A stretch of DNA of 24,495 nt from an uncultured Gammaproteobacteria bacterium (GTDB lineage Bacteria > Patescibacteriota > Microgenomatia > Levybacterales > UBA12049), in NCBI GenBank assembly GCA_964590985.1, contig CAZPZA010000001.1:1-24495 (forward strand), written 5' to 3'. Position 1 is the stretch's first letter. Each line of letters begins with the position of its first letter. Made by a program: the position numbers and the translations under genes. Under the pieces are notes generated by a model. That model was given only the letters and a program-made list of their open reading frames with translations, was not told where the DNA came from and made no database searches. Positions 2,529-24,495 of this stretch are shown here, piece after piece.

Positions 2529-3514
2529 ATTCCTGGTTCGATAGTAAAAACCATGCCTGGTTTTAGAATATCTTTTGAGTTTGGAGAAAGACGCGGTGCT
2601 TCATGGACTTCAAGACCAATTCCATGACCGACGCTATGAGGTATGGTTTTATAGTTTTTTGAGATAATATAATCGCGAGCAACTTTATCGACTTTTTTTG
2701 CAAGGATACTCCTTCGCAAAGGAGTATCCTTGTTAGCAAGTACGTTTATTGCTTTTTGTTGGGCATCAAGGACTGTTTGATACATCTTTTTGTACTCTGC
2801 ATTAGGAGAACCAAAAAAGACAGTTCGAGTCATGTCGGAGCAGTAGCTGTCGATCTTAACACCAAAATCAATCAATATTATGTCTTTGGTTTTTAGTCTT
2901 TGGTAGCTAGTCTTATGGTGGGGAAAAGCAGAGTTTTTGCCAAACGCAACAATAGGCGGAAAAGAAACATCTGCCCTATGTTTTTTGATAAACAATTCTA
3001 TTTCGCATGCTAATTCTTTTTCTGCTATACCCTCTTTTATCTTGCCTAAGATATAATTAAATGTTTTATCTCCTAGACTACAGGCTCTTTCTATAGTTTC
3101 TATTTCTTTTTTATCTTTTATTATTCGTAGGTGATCGGCAGTATAATGATATAAATCGTTGCAGTGTTTAGAAATCATTCTGTGTTCTTTAACTGTGAGG
3201 TTATCTTCTTCGATGCCAAGTTTTTTGATTTTGTGTTTTTTAGATATTCTTTTTAATGCCTTTTCAAATGAAAATTTTGTAGATATTTCGATGAGCTCAA
3301 AATCGCTGATTAGAGTTTTAACTGCTTGGCTATAGCGGCCATCAGTTAGAATGTATTGTTTGTCCTTTGCAATAAAAATATATGCTTCGCGTTCCTCTTT
3401 TGAAAATGAAGAAAAGTTGGTTAGATAAGTAATATTTGGGACAGAGGAGATAAGAGCAGCATTGAAGCGACTGTGGATCAGTTTATGTCTCACTTTTGAT
3501 AAACGGCCGTTCAT
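2423..3514 (-). CDS. Xaa-Pro aminopeptidase/dipeptidase (M24B family)
   Basis: Creatinase-like N-domain (TDGRY); metal ligands in DFG...YCSDMTRT, HSVGHGIGLEVHE, TIEPGIY and GVRIED. Confidence 0.95.
   Translation of the reverse strand: MNGRLSKVRHKLIHSRFNAALISSVPNITYLTNFSSFSKEEREAYIFIAKDKQYILTDGRYSQAVKTLISDFELIEISTKFSFEKALKRISKKHKIKKLGIEEDNLTVKEHRMISKHCNDLYHYTADHLRIIKDKKEIETIERACSLGDKTFNYILGKIKEGIAEKELACEIELFIKKHRADVSFPPIVAFGKNSAFPHHKTSYQRLKTKDIILIDFGVKIDSYCSDMTRTVFFGSPNAEYKKMYQTVLDAQQKAINVLANKDTPLRRSILAKKVDKVARDYIISKNYKTIPHSVGHGIGLEVHEAPRLSPNSKDILKPGMVFTIEPGIYLPGFGGVRIEDVVVLEEPCPRFLTRSSRELIKL
2701..2732. repeat. Perfect 14-bp-stem palindrome inside the peptidase CDS
   Basis: CAAGGATACTCCTT-CGCA-AAGGAGTATCCTTG; encodes NKDTPLRRSIL on the minus strand. 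Confidence 0.85.
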
Positions 3515-4871: not shown

Positions 4872-5393
4872 ATGTTGGATATTTATGTTCTTGGTAGTAA
4901 TTCAATAAAAATTCGTACAAAACGGGTATCTTTTGTTGTTGATCCCGTTGATTCAATTAGCAAAACAAATGCTGACGCTGTGCTTGTTTTGAGGAAAGAG
5001 ACTGTAGATTTAGCAAGAGTTTCAAACTATAGAGTTGTTTTGCGAGGCGAGGGAGAATACGAGATTGAAAATGTTAAGATTTCAGGCATTGCGGCAGGAG
5101 AGGGTTTTGTTTATAGTATTTTTGCAGATAATATGGAGATTGTTTTGGGCAGAGTAAGTACGCTTTTAAGAATACAAGATAAAAGCTTGTTATGCCAAGT
5201 TGCGCTTCTTAATGTAGACAACGAATTAAAATCTATTATTGCAAACTTAGAACCAAGAGCTGTTATTTTGTATGGAGAGAAAAGGATCGAAGGAGCCAAA
5301 GAATTAGGAAAAGATTGGGTAAAGCCAGTTTCGAAAGTTACTGTTACGAAAGAAAAGTTAGAGAAGGAGATAGAAGTAGAGGTGTTGGGATAA
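4872..5393 (+). CDS. Degenerate metallo-beta-lactamase-fold protein
   Basis: LGSNSIKI...VVDP...ADAVLV...GEGEYEIENVKISGI resembles MBL-fold proteins, but the HxHxDH motif is absent and the protein has no His. Confidence 0.6.
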   Translation: MLDIYVLGSNSIKIRTKRVSFVVDPVDSISKTNADAVLVLRKETVDLARVSNYRVVLRGEGEYEIENVKISGIAAGEGFVYSIFADNMEIVLGRVSTLLRIQDKSLLCQVALLNVDNELKSIIANLEPRAVILYGEKRIEGAKELGKDWVKPVSKVTVTKEKLEKEIEVEVLG

Positions 5394-5400
5394 AATAGTT

Positions 5401-5496
5401 AAAAGTTCAAAGTGCAAAGTTCAAAATTACAATTCAAAATTAAAAATTTTTAACTTTAAACTGTAACTTTTAATTTTTAACTTTGAACTTTAAATT
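5401..5496. repeat. Inverted heptamer array (AAAGTTC/AAAATTC units)
   Basis: Left AAAAGTT CAAAGTG CAAAGTT CAAAATT ACAATT CAAAATT AAAAATT; right TAACTTT AAACTG TAACTTT TAATTTT TAACTTT GAACTTT. Confidence 0.85.
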
Positions 5497-5501
5497 TATT
5501 T

Positions 5502-6824
5502 ATGGCAACCTTAAAGGTTCCTCCTCACAACGAAGAAGCCGAAAGCAGCGCATTGGGTGCGATACTTATAGACAAAGACGCTATAAGCGTTGTATCCTCA
5601 TTTATTTCTGTGAATGACTTTTACAATCAGGTTAATGGTTTAATCTATAGGGCAATGCTATCTTTATACGAGAAAGGCGAGCCAATAGATATGCTTACTC
5701 TTATATCTCGACTTAAGAAAGAAAAAACGTATAAAAAAGTTGATTCTTCTTATCTTGTTAACCTTGTTAACACTGTTCCAACTGCAGCAAATGTAGAACA
5801 TTATGCATTATTAATTAAAGAAGCTGCAACAAAAAGAGCATTAATTCAGGCTGGAACTCAAGTTGTGGAGATGGGATTCTCCGAAGATCAAGAGGCGGCA
5901 GACTGTCTTAACAAAGCAGAATCAGCGATATTTTCTATCTCTCAAAAAAACAACTTGCGGTCTTTTGTTTTACTAAAGGATGCACTCGCAGAAAGCTTTG
6001 ATAGAATAGACGAACTTCATAAGAAAGATTCGGGACTGCGAGGTGTTGCGACAGGTTTTGTGGATTTGGACAAAATTTTATCTGGCATGCAGAGATCCAA
6101 CCTTCTTATTTTGGCAGCGCGCCCGGGCCAGGGAAAAACAGCTATGGTGGTAAATATTTCTCGGTATATTACAGTTAACGACAAAAAACCAGTTGGTATA
6201 TTTTCTTTGGAAATGAGCAAAGAAGAATTGGTGGATAGACTGTTGGTTGGGCAAGCAGATGTTGATGCTTGGAGAATAAAAACTGGAAGGCTGTCGGATG
6301 CAGACTTTACTAAACTATCAAATGCTATGGGAGAATTGGCAGAGGCAAAAATTTTTATAGACGATACACCGGGAATCTCGGTATCTGAAATGCGTACAAA
6401 AGCAAGGCGTTTGCATCTTGAGCAAAATTTATCTTTACTAATAGTAGATTATCTCCAGCTTGTTGATCCCGGACGAAGGTACGATAACAGAGTGCAGGAA
6501 GTATCTATTGTTTCTCAATCGCTTAAAAATTTGGCGCGAGAACTTAAGATTCCGGTTTTGGCTGTATCCCAACTCTCAAGGGCAGTTGAGCACAGAGGCG
6601 AAAAAAGACCTCAACTTGCCGATCTTAGGGAGAGTGGTTCTATAGAACAAGATGCAGACGTAGTGATGTTTTTGTATAGGCCAGAGAGTGAGCCTGCGCC
6701 TATAATACTAACAAAACTTTTTGTAGCCAAACACAGAAATGGTCCAATGGGAGAAATAGATTTAGGCTTCCGTGGAGCAAGGTTGAGATTTGAAAATATA
6801 GAAGGAAGAAGAGAGTTCGCATGA
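5502..6824 (+). CDS. dnaB: Replicative DNA helicase
   Basis: PPHNEEAE N-terminus, Walker A ARPGQGKT, IVDYLQL, SQLSR, LRESGSIEQDAD, KHRNG; no intein. Confidence 0.98.
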   Translation: MATLKVPPHNEEAESSALGAILIDKDAISVVSSFISVNDFYNQVNGLIYRAMLSLYEKGEPIDMLTLISRLKKEKTYKKVDSSYLVNLVNTVPTAANVEHYALLIKEAATKRALIQAGTQVVEMGFSEDQEAADCLNKAESAIFSISQKNNLRSFVLLKDALAESFDRIDELHKKDSGLRGVATGFVDLDKILSGMQRSNLLILAARPGQGKTAMVVNISRYITVNDKKPVGIFSLEMSKEELVDRLLVGQADVDAWRIKTGRLSDADFTKLSNAMGELAEAKIFIDDTPGISVSEMRTKARRLHLEQNLSLLIVDYLQLVDPGRRYDNRVQEVSIVSQSLKNLARELKIPVLAVSQLSRAVEHRGEKRPQLADLRESGSIEQDADVVMFLYRPESEPAPIILTKLFVAKHRNGPMGEIDLGFRGARLRFENIEGRREFA

Positions 6825-7240: not shown

Positions 7241-7285
7241 TGGTGCTGGGGAGGAAGTCGAACCCTCACAGCCTTGCGACTAGTA
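7241..7285 (-). pseudogene. 3' half of a tRNA-Leu (att-like remnant)
   Basis: 7250-7285 is 34/36 identical to 8657-8692 of the tRNA-Leu in the same orientation; it ends CCCAGCACCA. Confidence 0.85.
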
Positions 7286-7979: not shown

Positions 7980-8036
7980 TACCGTTTCGTCGTATCTGTA
8001 CCGATCCCGTATCGGAAGTATGTCTACGAAGCGGTA
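7980..8036 (+). repeat. REP-like family A, full composite copy
   Basis: Core TCGTCGTATCTGTACCGATCCCGTATCGG (7987-8015) inside the outer stem TACCGTTTCGT/ACGAAGCGGTA. Confidence 0.9.
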
Positions 8037-8647: not shown

Positions 8648-8649
8648 AG

Positions 8650-8732
8650 TGGGCAAGGAGGGAGTCGAACCCTCACAGCCTTGCGACCAGTAGTTTTTGA
8701 GACTACCGCGTATACCATTCCGCCACTTGCCC
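8650..8732 (-). tRNA. tRNA-Leu(CAA), CCA not encoded
   Basis: GGGCAAG/CTTGCCC acceptor stem, GGAATGGTA D-loop, GTAGT-CTCAAAA-ACTAC anticodon arm, long variable arm, GAGGG-TTCGACT-CCCTC T-arm. Confidence 0.97.
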
Positions 8733-11899: not shown

Positions 11900-11958
11900 T
11901 CGTCGTATCTGTACCGATCCCGTATCGGAGGTAATGGTTCGTATCGGAGGTAATGGTT
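11900..11958 (+). repeat. REP-like family A copy plus an adjacent 19-bp tandem duplication
   Basis: Core 11900-11928; CGTATCGGAGGTAATGGTT occurs at 11921-11939 and 11940-11958. Confidence 0.9.
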
Positions 11959-19291: not shown

Positions 19292-19346
19292 TCCACATCG
19301 TCGTATCTGTACCGATCCCATATCGGTTTTCTATTGGCGATGCGGA
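19292..19346 (+). repeat. REP-like family A composite copy
   Basis: Core 19298-19326 (CCCAT loop variant) within outer stem TCCACATCGTC/GGCGATGCGGA; starts 5 nt after the xer stop. Confidence 0.9.
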
Positions 19347-21621: not shown

Positions 21622-21650
21622 TCGTCGTATCTGTACCGATCCCGTATCGG
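21622..21650 (+). repeat. REP-like family A copy between convergent genes
   Basis: TCGTCGTATCTGTACCGATCCCGTATCGG, identical to 7987-8015 and 11900-11928. Confidence 0.9.
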
Positions 21651-21659
21651 AATAGCATA

Positions 21660-23156
21660 CTAATGCTGATTACTCAAATTATCAATGACCATTGCTGCTA
21701 CTTCAACATCGGTAATTAAATTTATTCCCATATTCACAGAAATTTTTCTAATCAACTTTCCATCAGTAAACTCCTTGCCCTCTTTAATCTTATCTCTGGT
21801 TGGAATGTTGACGACAAGGTCAAAAACCTTTCTTTGTAAAAGATCGGCAATATTTGGGTTTTTGCCTCCTTCAGAGATTTTGTAGACAAGAGATGTAGGT
21901 ATTCCATGTTCTTTCAAAAATCTATGTGTTTTTTCGGTAGTATATAGAATGACATTTGAGTCTCTTGCCAAGTTTTTGATATGAGGCAGTAAAAATTTTT
22001 TATTTTTAATTTTCCCAATTGTCAATAAAACATGTGTTTTTTTCTGACTTAAGATTGCAGCTTGTCCATACCTTGATTTGCTCCAGTCTTCTGTTTGAGT
22101 ATTGAGAAGTGAAAAAATAGAAACATTTCTAATATCTTTTTCAGCAAAAATGTATTGCAGTACCCTTTCATTTCCAATGCCATAACCAGCGTGCGGATTA
22201 GTAGAATTTTGCTCTATAATATCTAGATACCATTTAAAATCTTCGTATTTACCTCCTCGCATTATATGTAGTTGATACATGGTGGAGGTGATTAATCGGC
22301 TATTGAGTTTTTTGAAATCATGCTCGCGAACCGATGCTCCTGTTCCCTCTCCGGCATAAGGAAAAATTAAATCTGCAGATAACACCACTCTCTCATCTTT
22401 AGTATAAACCTTCATGTTGAAAAACTTAATTTCTTTGGGATATTTCATGATAAACACCGGCAACTCCCCATTTTTTTTATTAAGGAGTTCAACAATTTTT
22501 GCCTCGTGTTTAGTTTTTAAATCATCACCAAATTTAACTTCTGGATAACCGTTGCTATTTAAAAGTTTTATTGCTGATTCATACTCGATTCTTAAAAAAT
22601 TTTTTATTGTTGTTTCAGTTAGTCTATCTACATTTCTTTTGTAAACCTTTCTTAAAATCTCCTCACGATCTATTAGCACTTTTTTAATCATGGACTGCAC
22701 TGTTTTTTGAATACTATTAAGCAAAGCTCCATACATTTGATCTTCGTCATAGTTTTCCCTTGTAAGACCAGTAAGTGTGCAGTCAAACTCTTCTTCTGTA
22801 AGCCTGAATTGTCTAAGATGTCTTTCATCTTCTTTGTCCTCATCGCGGCCCGAATGAATAATAGTGTATACAGCTGGCAATGACTGGAGTGCTTGTTCGA
22901 GAGCAAGTTGGCCTGTTTGGGTAAAAAATAGCGGTAGATCAAGACGATTGCCTACCTTAAAAAGAGTATCAACATTCTCACAAGCGCCTGTAATGCCTAC
23001 TATTTGGGGTACATCGACATATACTCTTCCTCTTTCTTGATAGCTTTCGTGGGCGCCTTGGTTTAGACTTTGGTTAACATTTATTAAATTTAGGAAATGA
23101 TCATCAAAATCTAAAGCGAGCCTTTTTCCTTCGGCACAAAGAGAAATTTTTTTCAT
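21660..23156 (-). CDS. AsnRS/AspRS-like class IIb catalytic core (no anticodon domain) fused to a CarB-type MGS domain
   Basis: FFTQTGQLALE, motif-2-like SGRDE...RHLRQF, FIMKYPKEIKFFNMK, SADLI..GE..GAS.RE, motif 3 PHAGYGIGNERV; C-terminal VLLTIG...TTEKTHRFLKEHGI...DLVVNIPT...DGKLIRK...ITDVEVA. Confidence 0.85.
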   Translation of the reverse strand: MKKISLCAEGKRLALDFDDHFLNLINVNQSLNQGAHESYQERGRVYVDVPQIVGITGACENVDTLFKVGNRLDLPLFFTQTGQLALEQALQSLPAVYTIIHSGRDEDKEDERHLRQFRLTEEEFDCTLTGLTRENYDEDQMYGALLNSIQKTVQSMIKKVLIDREEILRKVYKRNVDRLTETTIKNFLRIEYESAIKLLNSNGYPEVKFGDDLKTKHEAKIVELLNKKNGELPVFIMKYPKEIKFFNMKVYTKDERVVLSADLIFPYAGEGTGASVREHDFKKLNSRLITSTMYQLHIMRGGKYEDFKWYLDIIEQNSTNPHAGYGIGNERVLQYIFAEKDIRNVSIFSLLNTQTEDWSKSRYGQAAILSQKKTHVLLTIGKIKNKKFLLPHIKNLARDSNVILYTTEKTHRFLKEHGIPTSLVYKISEGGKNPNIADLLQRKVFDLVVNIPTRDKIKEGKEFTDGKLIRKISVNMGINLITDVEVAAMVIDNLSNQH

Positions 23157-23199: not shown

Positions 23200-23285
23200 T
23201 AGTCAATTCTTGTTCGAAGAGTTACATGGGAGGTGGACTAGATAGGACACCGCCTTAGAGATTTTGTACAAGGGGATGAACTATG

Positions 23286-23321
23286 CCGATATGGGATCGG
23301 AATAGCTATGCCGAAGCGGTA
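23286..23321 (-). repeat. REP-like family A diverged copy overlapping the pyrC stop codon
   Basis: Minus strand TACCGCTTCGGCATAGCTATTCCGATCCCATATCGG aligns without gaps to 7980-8015. Confidence 0.75.
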
Positions 23322-24495
23322 ATAATTTTCCCAAATCCTTCTTTTGCGAGGATTTTTCCGTTTTCAAAGACTTTTTTTCCACGAATAAAAACTCTCACAA
23401 CTTTTCCTTTTACCTTCATTCCCTCAAATGGTGACCAACCACACTTCGTAAATAAGGATGAATTATGAATGATGAATGATGAATTAAGATCTACTTCGGT
23501 ATAGGTTTCCTTATCAACTTTAATTCCAAAAATTTTTGCAGGGTTTGTGTGGCAGAGACGAATGATATCACTAAGTGTTAATCTTTTCTCAGAAACTGCG
23601 GTTAGTAAAAGTGGAAGGGTTGTTTCAAAACCAGGAACTCCAAAAGGTGGAAGAATCTGCGGGTCCTGGCGGGCTTTACCCCCGTCCGACATCCTCAGTC
23701 GCTTTGCTCCCTGCGGTTGCTCGACGGGGTCCCCCGCGCCCGCCACCCGCATAGTTTTTCCCACTTTTTCCGCAATTGTATGGGGGGCGTGGTCGGATTC
23801 GACAACGTTAATATATTTTAAATTTTCCCACAAAAACTCTACATCTTTTTTACTTTGCAAAGGTGGTCTCATTTTTCCAAAAGGACCAAGGATTTTTGCA
23901 TCTTTTTCATTCAAAAATAAATGATGAGGAGTTACGCCACAGGTTATTGGAAGGCCTTGTTCTTTGGCATGTATGATCATTTTAAGTTCAAAAGCTTGAC
24001 TTATATGACAAAAATGAGTCGGTGTTTTTATTTTTTTAACTACATTTATTACATCTTCAATTTTCTTCCCTTCTGCATGTACAAGTATCGGTTTTACGTT
24101 TTTCGTCGAAAGTATACTACTATGTAGTGCTATACTTTGGAACGCGTTTAACCAAGCGGTAAATATACTCTCTAAGATGTTTTTCTGAACAATAAAGTTT
24201 CCAGTAGTTTGATTAAGATATAATTTAAGTCCCATTACTTTATCTTTTACTTTTCTGAATTCATCGAGATTGTCACCCATTGATCCAAAGTAAAATCCTA
24301 CGTCGCAGACAATTTTTTTCTTGGCAATTTTTATTTTTTCATTTAATAATTTTGAAGTTGTAACAGGGACTTTGTTGTTCGGCATGTCAAAGATTGTGGT
24401 AAAACCTCCGGCAAGCGCGGCGCAAGTTCCGGTATAAAAATCTTCTTTGTGAGTCTGCCCCGGATCGCGTAAATGAACATGAGGATCAATAAGGC
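23306..24495 (-). CDS. pyrC: Dihydroorotase (runs off the right edge)
   Basis: The frame is open beyond the ORF-track start: LIDPHVHLRDPG...AALAGGFTTIFDMPN; also VHAE, CHIS, CGVTPHHL, SDHAPH, FGVPGFET, CGWSPF. Confidence 0.93.
   Translation of the reverse strand, partial: LIDPHVHLRDPGQTHKEDFYTGTCAALAGGFTTIFDMPNNKVPVTTSKLLNEKIKIAKKKIVCDVGFYFGSMGDNLDEFRKVKDKVMGLKLYLNQTTGNFIVQKNILESIFTAWLNAFQSIALHSSILSTKNVKPILVHAEGKKIEDVINVVKKIKTPTHFCHISQAFELKMIIHAKEQGLPITCGVTPHHLFLNEKDAKILGPFGKMRPPLQSKKDVEFLWENLKYINVVESDHAPHTIAEKVGKTMRVAGAGDPVEQPQGAKRLRMSDGGKARQDPQILPPFGVPGFETTLPLLLTAVSEKRLTLSDIIRLCHTNPAKIFGIKVDKETYTEVDLNSSFIIHNSSLFTKCGWSPFEGMKVKGKVVRVFIRGKKVFENGKILAKEGFGKIITASA
23456..23483. repeat. Heptamer array (GGATGAA TTATGAA TGATGAA TGATGAA) inside pyrC
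   Basis: Encodes (NS)SFIIHNSS just before LFTKCGWSPF. Confidence 0.7.
23658..23751. repeat. 94-bp GC-rich palindromic element, in-frame in pyrC
   Basis: Nested arms TGCGGG/CCCGCA, TGGCGGGC/GCCCGCCA, CCCCGTC/GACGGGG; 68/94 G+C by hand count. Confidence 0.85.
24109..24139 (-). repeat. REP-like family B copy, in-frame in pyrC
   Basis: 30/31 identical to 1135-1165; encodes QSIALHSSIL. Confidence 0.9.

Follow-up and report, generated by a model that had tools for sequence, protein, structure and literature searches.

Fungal and sponge mitochondria harbour GC clusters, 'byp' elements and double-hairpin elements, which are GC-rich mobile hairpins that invade AT-rich genomes, including their coding regions; byps are skipped by the ribosome, and an in-frame position is not required of them. 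Among the closest bacterial systems are the Rickettsia palindromic elements (RPEs), described as palindromic repeats that are inserted in unrelated genes without loss of frame, encode a conserved peptide and occupy positions compatible with the protein fold (Ogata et al., as summarised in PMC10969869). MITEs, or miniature inverted-repeat transposable elements, likewise occur in bacterial open reading frames (ORFs), as exemplified by QMITE of Coxiella, intragenic ERIC sequences and Correia elements (PMC10969869, PMC5896051), and repetitive extragenic palindromic (REP) sequences form superfamilies tagged GTAG/CGTC (PMC3733652), with REP-associated tyrosine transposases (RAYTs) of the Y1/HUH type. 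Here we analyse positions 1-24,495 of contig CAZPZA010000001.1, a stretch referred to as the window, and in it a 95-nt GC-rich palindromic segment within pyrC, the gene for dihydroorotase. This segment is probably a copy of a palindromic element resembling MITEs or REP doublets forming hairpins (REPINs), which is tolerated and translated as a surface loop in the manner of an RPE.

The pyrC insert and its dispersed family

The host gene lies at 23306-24495 on the minus strand with its 5′ end beyond the window; its full product, P0001 (404 residues), retains every invariant residue of the dihydroorotase family and has its nearest named relatives in Candidatus Levybacteria/Patescibacteria. Codons for two conserved motifs border the insertion loop, SDHAPH just upstream (23780-23797, minus strand) and PFGVPG just downstream (23630-23647, minus strand). 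Compared with empty pyrC orthologues, the gene contains an extra segment of 102 nt between them (23651-23752, minus strand), corresponding to 34 codons and to P0001 residues 257-290 (MRVAG...DPQIL); its limits were set by protein alignment and by codon-level comparison with the empty sites in L150 and L008. In the region of the element the protein reads ...SDHAPHTIAEKVGKT MRVAGAGDPVEQPQGAKRLRMSDGGKARQDPQIL PPFGVPG..., exactly as quoted in an earlier model reading of the letters and ORF translations of the window (the sequence-only reading), and its peptide stretches include VAGAGDPVEQPQGAK and LRMSDGGK. That reading had estimated an insert of ~32 residues near the active site: the insert is indeed in frame but measures 34 residues, and its proximity to the active site holds in the sequence only, where it lies ~10 residues past the catalytic DHAPH motif.

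In ~95 of 120 close homologues only about four residues separate APHT..EK from PFGVPG, as had been anticipated for this site, whereas ~25 have 4-71 extra residues at the loop between SDHAPH and PFGVPG. The distant PyrC genes among the matches listed (Saccharibacteria, Daviesbacteria, Chloroflexi) give matches of ~1,040 nt that leave no space for the insert. The closest solved relative is human CAD dihydroorotase, with which P0001 shares two aligned blocks (residues 6-255 opposite chain positions 10-245, and residues 291-399 opposite 247-355), so that residues 256-290 correspond to a single residue of the human enzyme. Because most homologues lack the insert and the human protein has one residue there, we judge from these alignments that it is a real insertion and no ancestral subdomain of dihydroorotase. 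An AlphaFold2 model of P0001 built from the homologue alignment has a mean predicted local distance difference test (pLDDT) of 89.3 and a predicted template modelling score of 0.89; the insert appears in it as a coil without secondary structure at pLDDT 45-59. Three of the checks that the sequence-only reading had suggested agree with it: the orthologue alignment shows the insert to be absent from ~95 of 120 close homologues, the structure model gives a low-confidence coil in an otherwise confident protein, and further copies were found in unrelated genes of low-GC contigs.

A profile of the element family matches the window on the minus strand at 23657-23751 (nhmmer, 95 nt, model positions 2-97, E = 1.1e-22), which agrees within 1 nt with the 23658-23751 proposed before. 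This A-type copy has the ends GCGGGTGGCGGGC...GCCCGCCAGGACCCGC; its orientation along the pyrC coding strand is taken as forward. The GC content, measured in 100-nt windows, peaks at 0.70 at 23650-23749 against 0.366 for the whole window, bearing out the strong shift seen earlier, and the element region is the sole 60-nt window with a GC content of at least 0.62 across all 24.5 kb. As coding-strand RNA, 23640-23770 folds with -62.9 kcal/mol (z = -4.3), an energy matched by 2 of 200 dinucleotide shuffles. The predicted fold is one long hairpin of three nested tiers, outer, middle and apical, and accords with the three nested inverted arms around a core that had been recognized in the sequence-only reading.

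All parts of the hairpin are given here on the minus strand. In the minimum-free-energy fold the 5′ arm of the outer stem, UGCGGGUGGCGGGC (23738-23751), pairs with the 3′ arm, GCCCGCC AGG ACCCGCA (23658-23674); the stem represents family consensus helices 1-2, in which compensatory pairs occur, and its 3′ arm contains the family-invariant right terminus CAGGACCC. The 5′ arm of the middle stem, CCCCGUC (23723-23729), pairs with 23680-23686 (CCCCGTC/GACGGGG), and its C-run is one base below the family consensus length, which shifts the reading frame inside the element. The 3′ arm of this stem is included in the most conserved block of the family, GAGGATGTCGGACGGGGG (23680-23697), which consists of invariant alignment columns and served as a scan pattern. 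The apical region GCAGGGAGCAAAGCGACTGAGG (23693-23714), the 'core' of the sequence-only reading, comprises helices around that core and occurs once in the window. The apex is the variable part of the family: L005 and L106 have other sequence there, and in a long form of the element it is an AT-rich interior of ~90-110 nt.

Further copies were sought at the protein and at the DNA level. Translated in six frames and searched against a protein collection, the element matched, in the opposite-strand reading, an AlkD-like DNA alkylation repair protein and a GT1 glycosyltransferase, whose copies are ~92% identical to the window copy at the DNA level. Metagenome contigs were scanned with an 18-mer common to all copies, GAGGATGTCGGAYGGGGG; about 40 of the 60 matches were due to chance and lay in high-GC contigs, and the true copies sit in low-GC contigs (37-45%). 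Short-form copies (~90-100 nt) were located inside the genes for DnaX (four contigs), a WecG/TagA glycosyltransferase (two), IF-2 and AlkD-like proteins (three), and one more, without a long ORF across it, is apparently intergenic. The long form (155-175 nt) shares its ends with the short one, has an AT-rich interior and is present inside the genes for LeuRS and three membrane proteins. Host gene identities were confirmed by Pfam. All forms together span 88-175 nt, and at least nine different genes plus intergenic DNA hold copies of the element. Between the window copy and those in unrelated genes the identity is 86-92%; that such copies recur in frame in at least five further unrelated genes, and also outside genes, supports the suggestion of the sequence-only reading that the segment is a mobile palindromic element of the RPE kind.

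Profile and pattern searches over the examined loci revealed three copies in L097 and two in L129, whereas L111 combines an A-type copy in dnaX with a B-type copy in another ORF. Subfamily B includes the 'RGDTTGR' inserts in PyrC of L006 and L153, which have the same termini as the rest of the family, GCGAGGGGTG...CAGGACCCCGAGC, and a different interior; a second B copy in L153, ~90% identical, lies 2.7 kb off in DNA without a long ORF. L150, which is empty at the pyrC site, has a related copy elsewhere. The scan of viral contigs with the 18-mer returned three chance matches, none with element features. A phmmer search with the 32-residue reverse-frame peptide against 1.84 billion representatives gave no match, but this short and composition-biased query also missed known positives, and a profile of concatenated peptides, with no match at E up to 10, was equally uninformative. 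In the literature that we searched, such elements are not described for the Candidate Phyla Radiation.

In pyrC of L009 (6767-7891) an insert at the same loop has a GC content of only 45% and still forms a hairpin (z = -5.4); it has the apical palindrome TCCGCCAGYTGGCGGA in common with the L005 copy and may represent the element in a decaying or AT-adapted state.

Constraint, translation and mobility

Structure statistics were derived from 13 A-type copies. The hairpin is retained throughout this set, with 96.4% of cells paired and compensatory change on both sides at six pairs; the covariation score of 0.176, compared with 0.112 in shuffles, was reached by none of 500 shuffles and lies far above all slid controls. 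The unpaired nucleotides of the internal loops are conserved within the family as well. Of the two strands, the G-rich one has the better fold in 12 of the 13 copies, by 2-12 kcal/mol and independently of how the host gene is oriented, and in most host genes the weaker-folding strand is the mRNA strand. This pattern argues against a role at the mRNA level and fits one at the DNA level. The constraint on the element itself appears to lie in its nucleotide sequence and hairpin, and not in the peptide.

The reading frames point in the same direction. Owing to 1-nt indels in the C-run, parts of the element are read in different frames in pyrC of the window, of L005 and of L151, and each of the three is back in the host frame by the end of the insert. 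Third-codon-position identity between the pyrC orthologues is only 44-55%, and insert-bearing PyrC proteins are scattered in a neighbour-joining tree of the 120 homologues. Since the window copy is far more similar than this to copies in unrelated genes, and its fellow carriers are scattered, it is not an old loop that diverged along with pyrC. The copy is instead young, refreshed by recombination with other copies, or under a strong sequence constraint of its own.

Every gene-borne copy is in frame and free of stop codons, despite indels and differences in length; in pyrC alone the net added length varies from 87 to 108 nt. In the reverse orientation the consensus is open in all three frames, and yet all five reverse-oriented host genes use the same one, which encodes GPVGLHPRPTSSVA.LP.GARRGSPAPAT, a peptide rich in Pro, Gly, Ser, Thr and Ala and without Cys. 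Other hosts have the insert between Pfam domains or dividing one domain match into two stretches. As neither RNA excision nor ribosomal bypassing demands a preserved, stop-free frame or a single preferred one, these observations argue against both, and the element is most likely translated with its host gene. The disordered loop of the model and the positions in inter-domain linkers are what a tolerated translated passenger would predict. At gathering thresholds nothing in the window matches Rfam 15, and a relaxed search around the element (E up to 10) brought up no noteworthy family. Two other candidates were discarded, a hammerhead-like motif, for which CUGAGGA is present but GAAA, the stem arrangement and an Rfam match are not, and an intein, for which the insert is far too small. 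A purine-rich target motif upstream of the insertions was likewise given up, as no more than an impression.

We propose that a family of small non-coding GC-rich palindromic repeats is dispersed in low-GC genomes of the Patescibacteria type, and that one copy was inserted in the variable loop of dihydroorotase between SDHAPH and PFGVPG, or was renewed at this site by recombination with a different one. The gene would stay open because the net gain in nucleotides is divisible by three and the reading continues in a stop-free frame. Transcribed and translated with the gene, the copy would give rise to a hydrophilic, disordered loop of 34 residues at the protein surface, tolerated by the enzyme, and the copy's sequence and hairpin would be kept for the propagation of the element itself. 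The ends of the element are imperfect inverted repeats; the flanks GC...GC and CGAG...CGAG seem to be part of it, because they recur in different hosts. The missing detectable target-site duplication and the better-folding strand weakly favour a single-strand, hairpin-recognising mechanism (HUH/Y1-type) over a DDE transposase.

Genes for RAYT-like Y1/HUH transposases are present in three related Levybacteria loci (L005 12441-12986, L006 ~1315-1881 and L008 ~5243-5719). The best match of the L005 gene is the REP-associated tyrosine transposase model NF047646, with 51.8 bits and hence below the cut-off of 80, and the gene is bordered on both sides by the hairpin CCACACCCGATGTGG.

Several points weigh against this proposal. 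The RAYT-like genes are flanked by that different hairpin and not by the pyrC-type element, for which reason a derivation of the element from the RAYT-flanking repeats was rejected. The flanks of ~18 copies, among which there is no closely related pair of filled and empty sites, display no consistent target-site duplication, and no autonomous parent insertion sequence turned up in the examined loci, in which no dedicated search for one was made. The argument that the element is transposable is drawn from its distribution, and that for its translation from frame preservation. At 80% identity or more, the two hot-spring runs that contain the window have no match to the element outside the pyrC locus, and the organism of the window itself may therefore be single-copy for it. 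Finally, the same pyrC loop, and a similar region of dnaX, are occupied across lineages by different subfamilies, for which random insertion followed by selection would account only loosely.

A more far-reaching version, which we regard as rather unlikely, is that the repeats form a new class of GC-rich hairpin element of candidate-phyla bacteria. They would not insert at random but time and again colonise the same permissive loops of essential genes (pyrC, dnaX and others), or be refreshed there by gene conversion, would move as single-stranded DNA through a hairpin-recognising HUH-type enzyme without target duplication, and be a regular source of protein loops that later decay into AT-rich, lineage-specific insertions, as inserts of the L009 type suggest.

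In one alternative the insertion has been domesticated and serves a function itself, either as a hairpin in mRNA or DNA to which a host factor binds or as a standard peptide module, and would be deliberately targeted to particular loops of essential genes by homing or gene conversion. Such a function would be in line with the use of one of three open frames by all reverse-oriented hosts, with the conserved unpaired nucleotides of the internal loops, with the repeated occupation of the pyrC and dnaX loops by different subfamilies with common termini and with the high similarity across deeply diverged hosts. Selection for a harmless peptide, together with the transposition signals of the element, is a simpler account of the same facts; moreover, most orthologues lack the insert, the peptides differ among the pyrC copies and copies exist in non-coding DNA too. 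We consider domestication improbable.

An untranslated intervening sequence would be expected to leave frames unconstrained, whereas the copies in at least nine host genes are all in frame and stop-free, with internal shifts compensated within or beside the element. Under this explanation the segment would be a small structure-dependent intron, would be removed by RNase III-type excision and ligation, or would be bypassed by the ribosome like the byp elements of yeast mitochondria. A stable GC-rich hairpin within an AT-rich coding region, conserved ends with a covarying structure, and the repeated, homing-intron-like occupancy of the same conserved gene sites would suit it. In most host genes, however, the strand present in the mRNA is the one with the poorer fold, by 2-12 kcal/mol, and the structure hence does not track the transcript; intergenic copies exist, Rfam gives no match and the host is bacterial. 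An intervening sequence is accordingly improbable, and the intron resembling a bulge-helix-bulge (BHB) that the sequence-only reading had offered as its alternative is not supported, in view of the bacterial host, the lack of an Rfam match and the stop-free frame kept despite indels.

A vertically inherited, lineage-specific PyrC loop or subdomain that functions at the protein level and whose hairpin is incidental is a very improbable reading of the insert. About 25 of 120 Levybacteria-type homologues do have extra residues at exactly this loop, which comes after the catalytic DHAPH motif, but the peptide is not conserved and orthologues differ in the frame in which this DNA is read. Segments of unrelated genes match the DNA at 86-92% identity while synonymous positions of pyrC are near saturation, carriers are scattered in the tree, human CAD dihydroorotase and the distant homologues among the matches listed lack the segment, and the AlphaFold model has no structure for it. 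A single-copy sequence conserved at the protein level across distant PyrC homologues, named by the sequence-only reading as the outcome that would speak against it, is not what we observe, as the insert is missing from ~95 of 120 close homologues and from the distant ones listed, and is not conserved as a protein where it is present. An assembly chimera or high-GC contamination, which the abrupt jump in composition and one Logan contig broken within the hairpin might suggest, is of negligible probability and an assembly artefact is excluded, because the same pyrC with the identical insert is found in four independently assembled contigs (JGI, ENA) and on Logan contigs from two hot-spring runs, one of which spans the whole element, and homologous inserts are present in many other assemblies.

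Genes for IF-2, DnaX, LeuRS and PyrC harbour the element in frame in the ultra-small genomes of Patescibacteria, a phenomenon hitherto known mainly from Rickettsia. The element accounts for part of the lineage-specific insertions that trouble annotation and alignment of proteins from candidate phyla, and the conserved 18-mer together with the termini provides a simple marker for scanning genomes. Testable questions follow concerning the route of mobilisation, the recurrence at the same loops and translated repeats as seeds of new protein segments. The case is of moderate interest, which it owes to the host group, to the essential genes hit, to its extreme contrast in GC content and to loops that are used repeatedly.

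Other repeats and neighbouring genes

Three further repeats within pyrC that the sequence-only reading had listed are present. Its 34-nt 'family B' repeat is an AT-rich palindrome, AAAGTATAGCGCTACATAGTAGTATACTTTGG, with two copies in the window (24106-24139 and 1135-1168, 94% identity). In pyrC it reads QSIALHSSIL, and the same peptide stands at the start of the ORF 1126-1797. The palindrome also occurs in L151 pyrC; the region of the protein that contains it has low pLDDT and is absent from human CAD dihydroorotase, where the alignment shows a 9-residue gap. Four GATGAAT heptamers in tandem at 23457-23484 read as ...NSSFIIHNSS.... The 'family A' repeat, TCGTCGTATCTGTACCGATCCCGTATCGG, is located at gene ends (7987-8020, 11900-11933, 19298-19331, 21622-21655 and, inverted, 23281-23319), the last copy overlapping the stop codon of pyrC. 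It consists of a CGTC motif and a small hairpin, CCGAT...ATCGG, and has the appearance of a REP-type element; L005 has a similar sequence upstream of its RAYT-like gene.

Two related loci contain GC-rich segments of other kinds. In L005 a different GC-rich hairpin (2984-3079, 0.68 GC) lies inside folD, whose product has 307 residues compared with 282 in L006 and 266 in L153; a link to the pyrC element was rejected as the sequences are unrelated, and no other copy was seen in the examined loci. Between the VIT1 and DUF5656 genes, ~900 nt (L153 12901-13826, L006 13699-14683) are ~68% conserved between the genomes and contain no long ORF and no Rfam match. This stretch includes a B-type element in L153 and, at the same position in L006 (14425-14491), a different GC-rich segment of ~67 nt.

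The neighbour of pyrC at 21660-23156 (minus strand) encodes a 498-residue protein with the unusual pairing of a class II aminoacyl-tRNA synthetase-like domain (PF00152) and an MGS-like domain (PF02142); a look-up of this protein returned no record. L005 and L153 instead have a full carB upstream of pyrC. Past the end of the window, upstream of pyrC, L001 has two tandem genes with aspartate/ornithine carbamoyltransferase domains (312-2200; 311 and 314 residues), and tandem genes of this type precede pyrC in L006 as well. Elsewhere in the window, a 36-nt segment (8657-8692) of the tRNA-Leu gene at 8649-8732 is repeated with 94% identity at 7250-7285, 1.4 kb off, where no tRNA is predicted; the repeat may be a fragment left by an integration event. 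An AT-rich palindrome at 5384-5509 has 63-nt arms that are 78% complementary, with no spacer.

Comparison with described elements

Known structured RNAs, ribozymes and group I or II introns are not represented by the element, which has no match in Rfam 15, and archaeal-type BHB introns differ from it in that the frame is preserved in all gene-borne copies and the host is bacterial. GC clusters and byps are organellar, and byps need no particular frame, whereas the frame of the present element is always preserved.

REPs and REPINs resemble the element in several respects. Both are GC-rich palindromes, and the long hairpin of the present element arises from two inverted halves in the style of a REPIN. 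Each arm carries CCCCCGTC, which contains a CGTC motif; REPs have no target-site duplication and none was evident at ~18 copies of the element, one strand folds better, and RAYT-like genes occur in related Levybacteria loci. However, REPs are extragenic by definition, while the present family is mostly intragenic, and the RAYT-like gene is flanked by CCACACCCGATGTGG hairpins instead of the same repeats as in REPIN-RAYT systems.

Like the MITEs found in bacterial ORFs, the element is small, lacks a transposase gene, has terminal inverted repeats and hairpin potential, is dispersed and forms in-frame ORF fusions, as MITEs sometimes do (PMC10969869, PMC5896051). At 88-175 nt it has no internal ORF except for read-through of the host gene; its ends, GC(G/GAG)GGGTG...CAGGACCC(C)GC/GAGC, pair with each other and are conserved in the A, B and long subfamilies; and its copies are distributed over at least nine genes and intergenic DNA, with 2-3 on single contigs. 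It differs in that the whole element is one long imperfect palindrome, not a pair of terminal repeats around an unrelated core, and in that neither a target-site duplication (~18 copies) nor a parent insertion sequence (examined loci, without a dedicated search) was found. Apart from target duplication and parent element, the broad definition of a MITE fits.

Functionally, the situation is that described for RPEs (PMC10969869). In both systems short palindromic repeats stand in many copies in frame in unrelated housekeeping genes, resulting in translational fusions, and a reading frame and peptide recur (PMC10969869). Both are placed at fold-compatible positions, here a low-pLDDT coil in PyrC and sites between Pfam domains in other hosts; intergenic copies occur as well, and the hosts have small, reduced genomes (PMC10969869). 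The present hosts are Patescibacteria and those of RPEs Alphaproteobacteria, with no evidence of a sequence relationship, and the composition is opposite, the element having ~70% GC in a genome of 37% GC. Its short form of ~95 nt compares with ~100-150 nt for RPEs in the same source (PMC10969869), its apex is modular and expands the element to ~175 nt, the same orthologue loop is filled in scattered lineages by different subfamilies, and copy number per genome appears low. The pyrC element is therefore best regarded as an analogue of the RPEs, and not as a relative or a member of their family.

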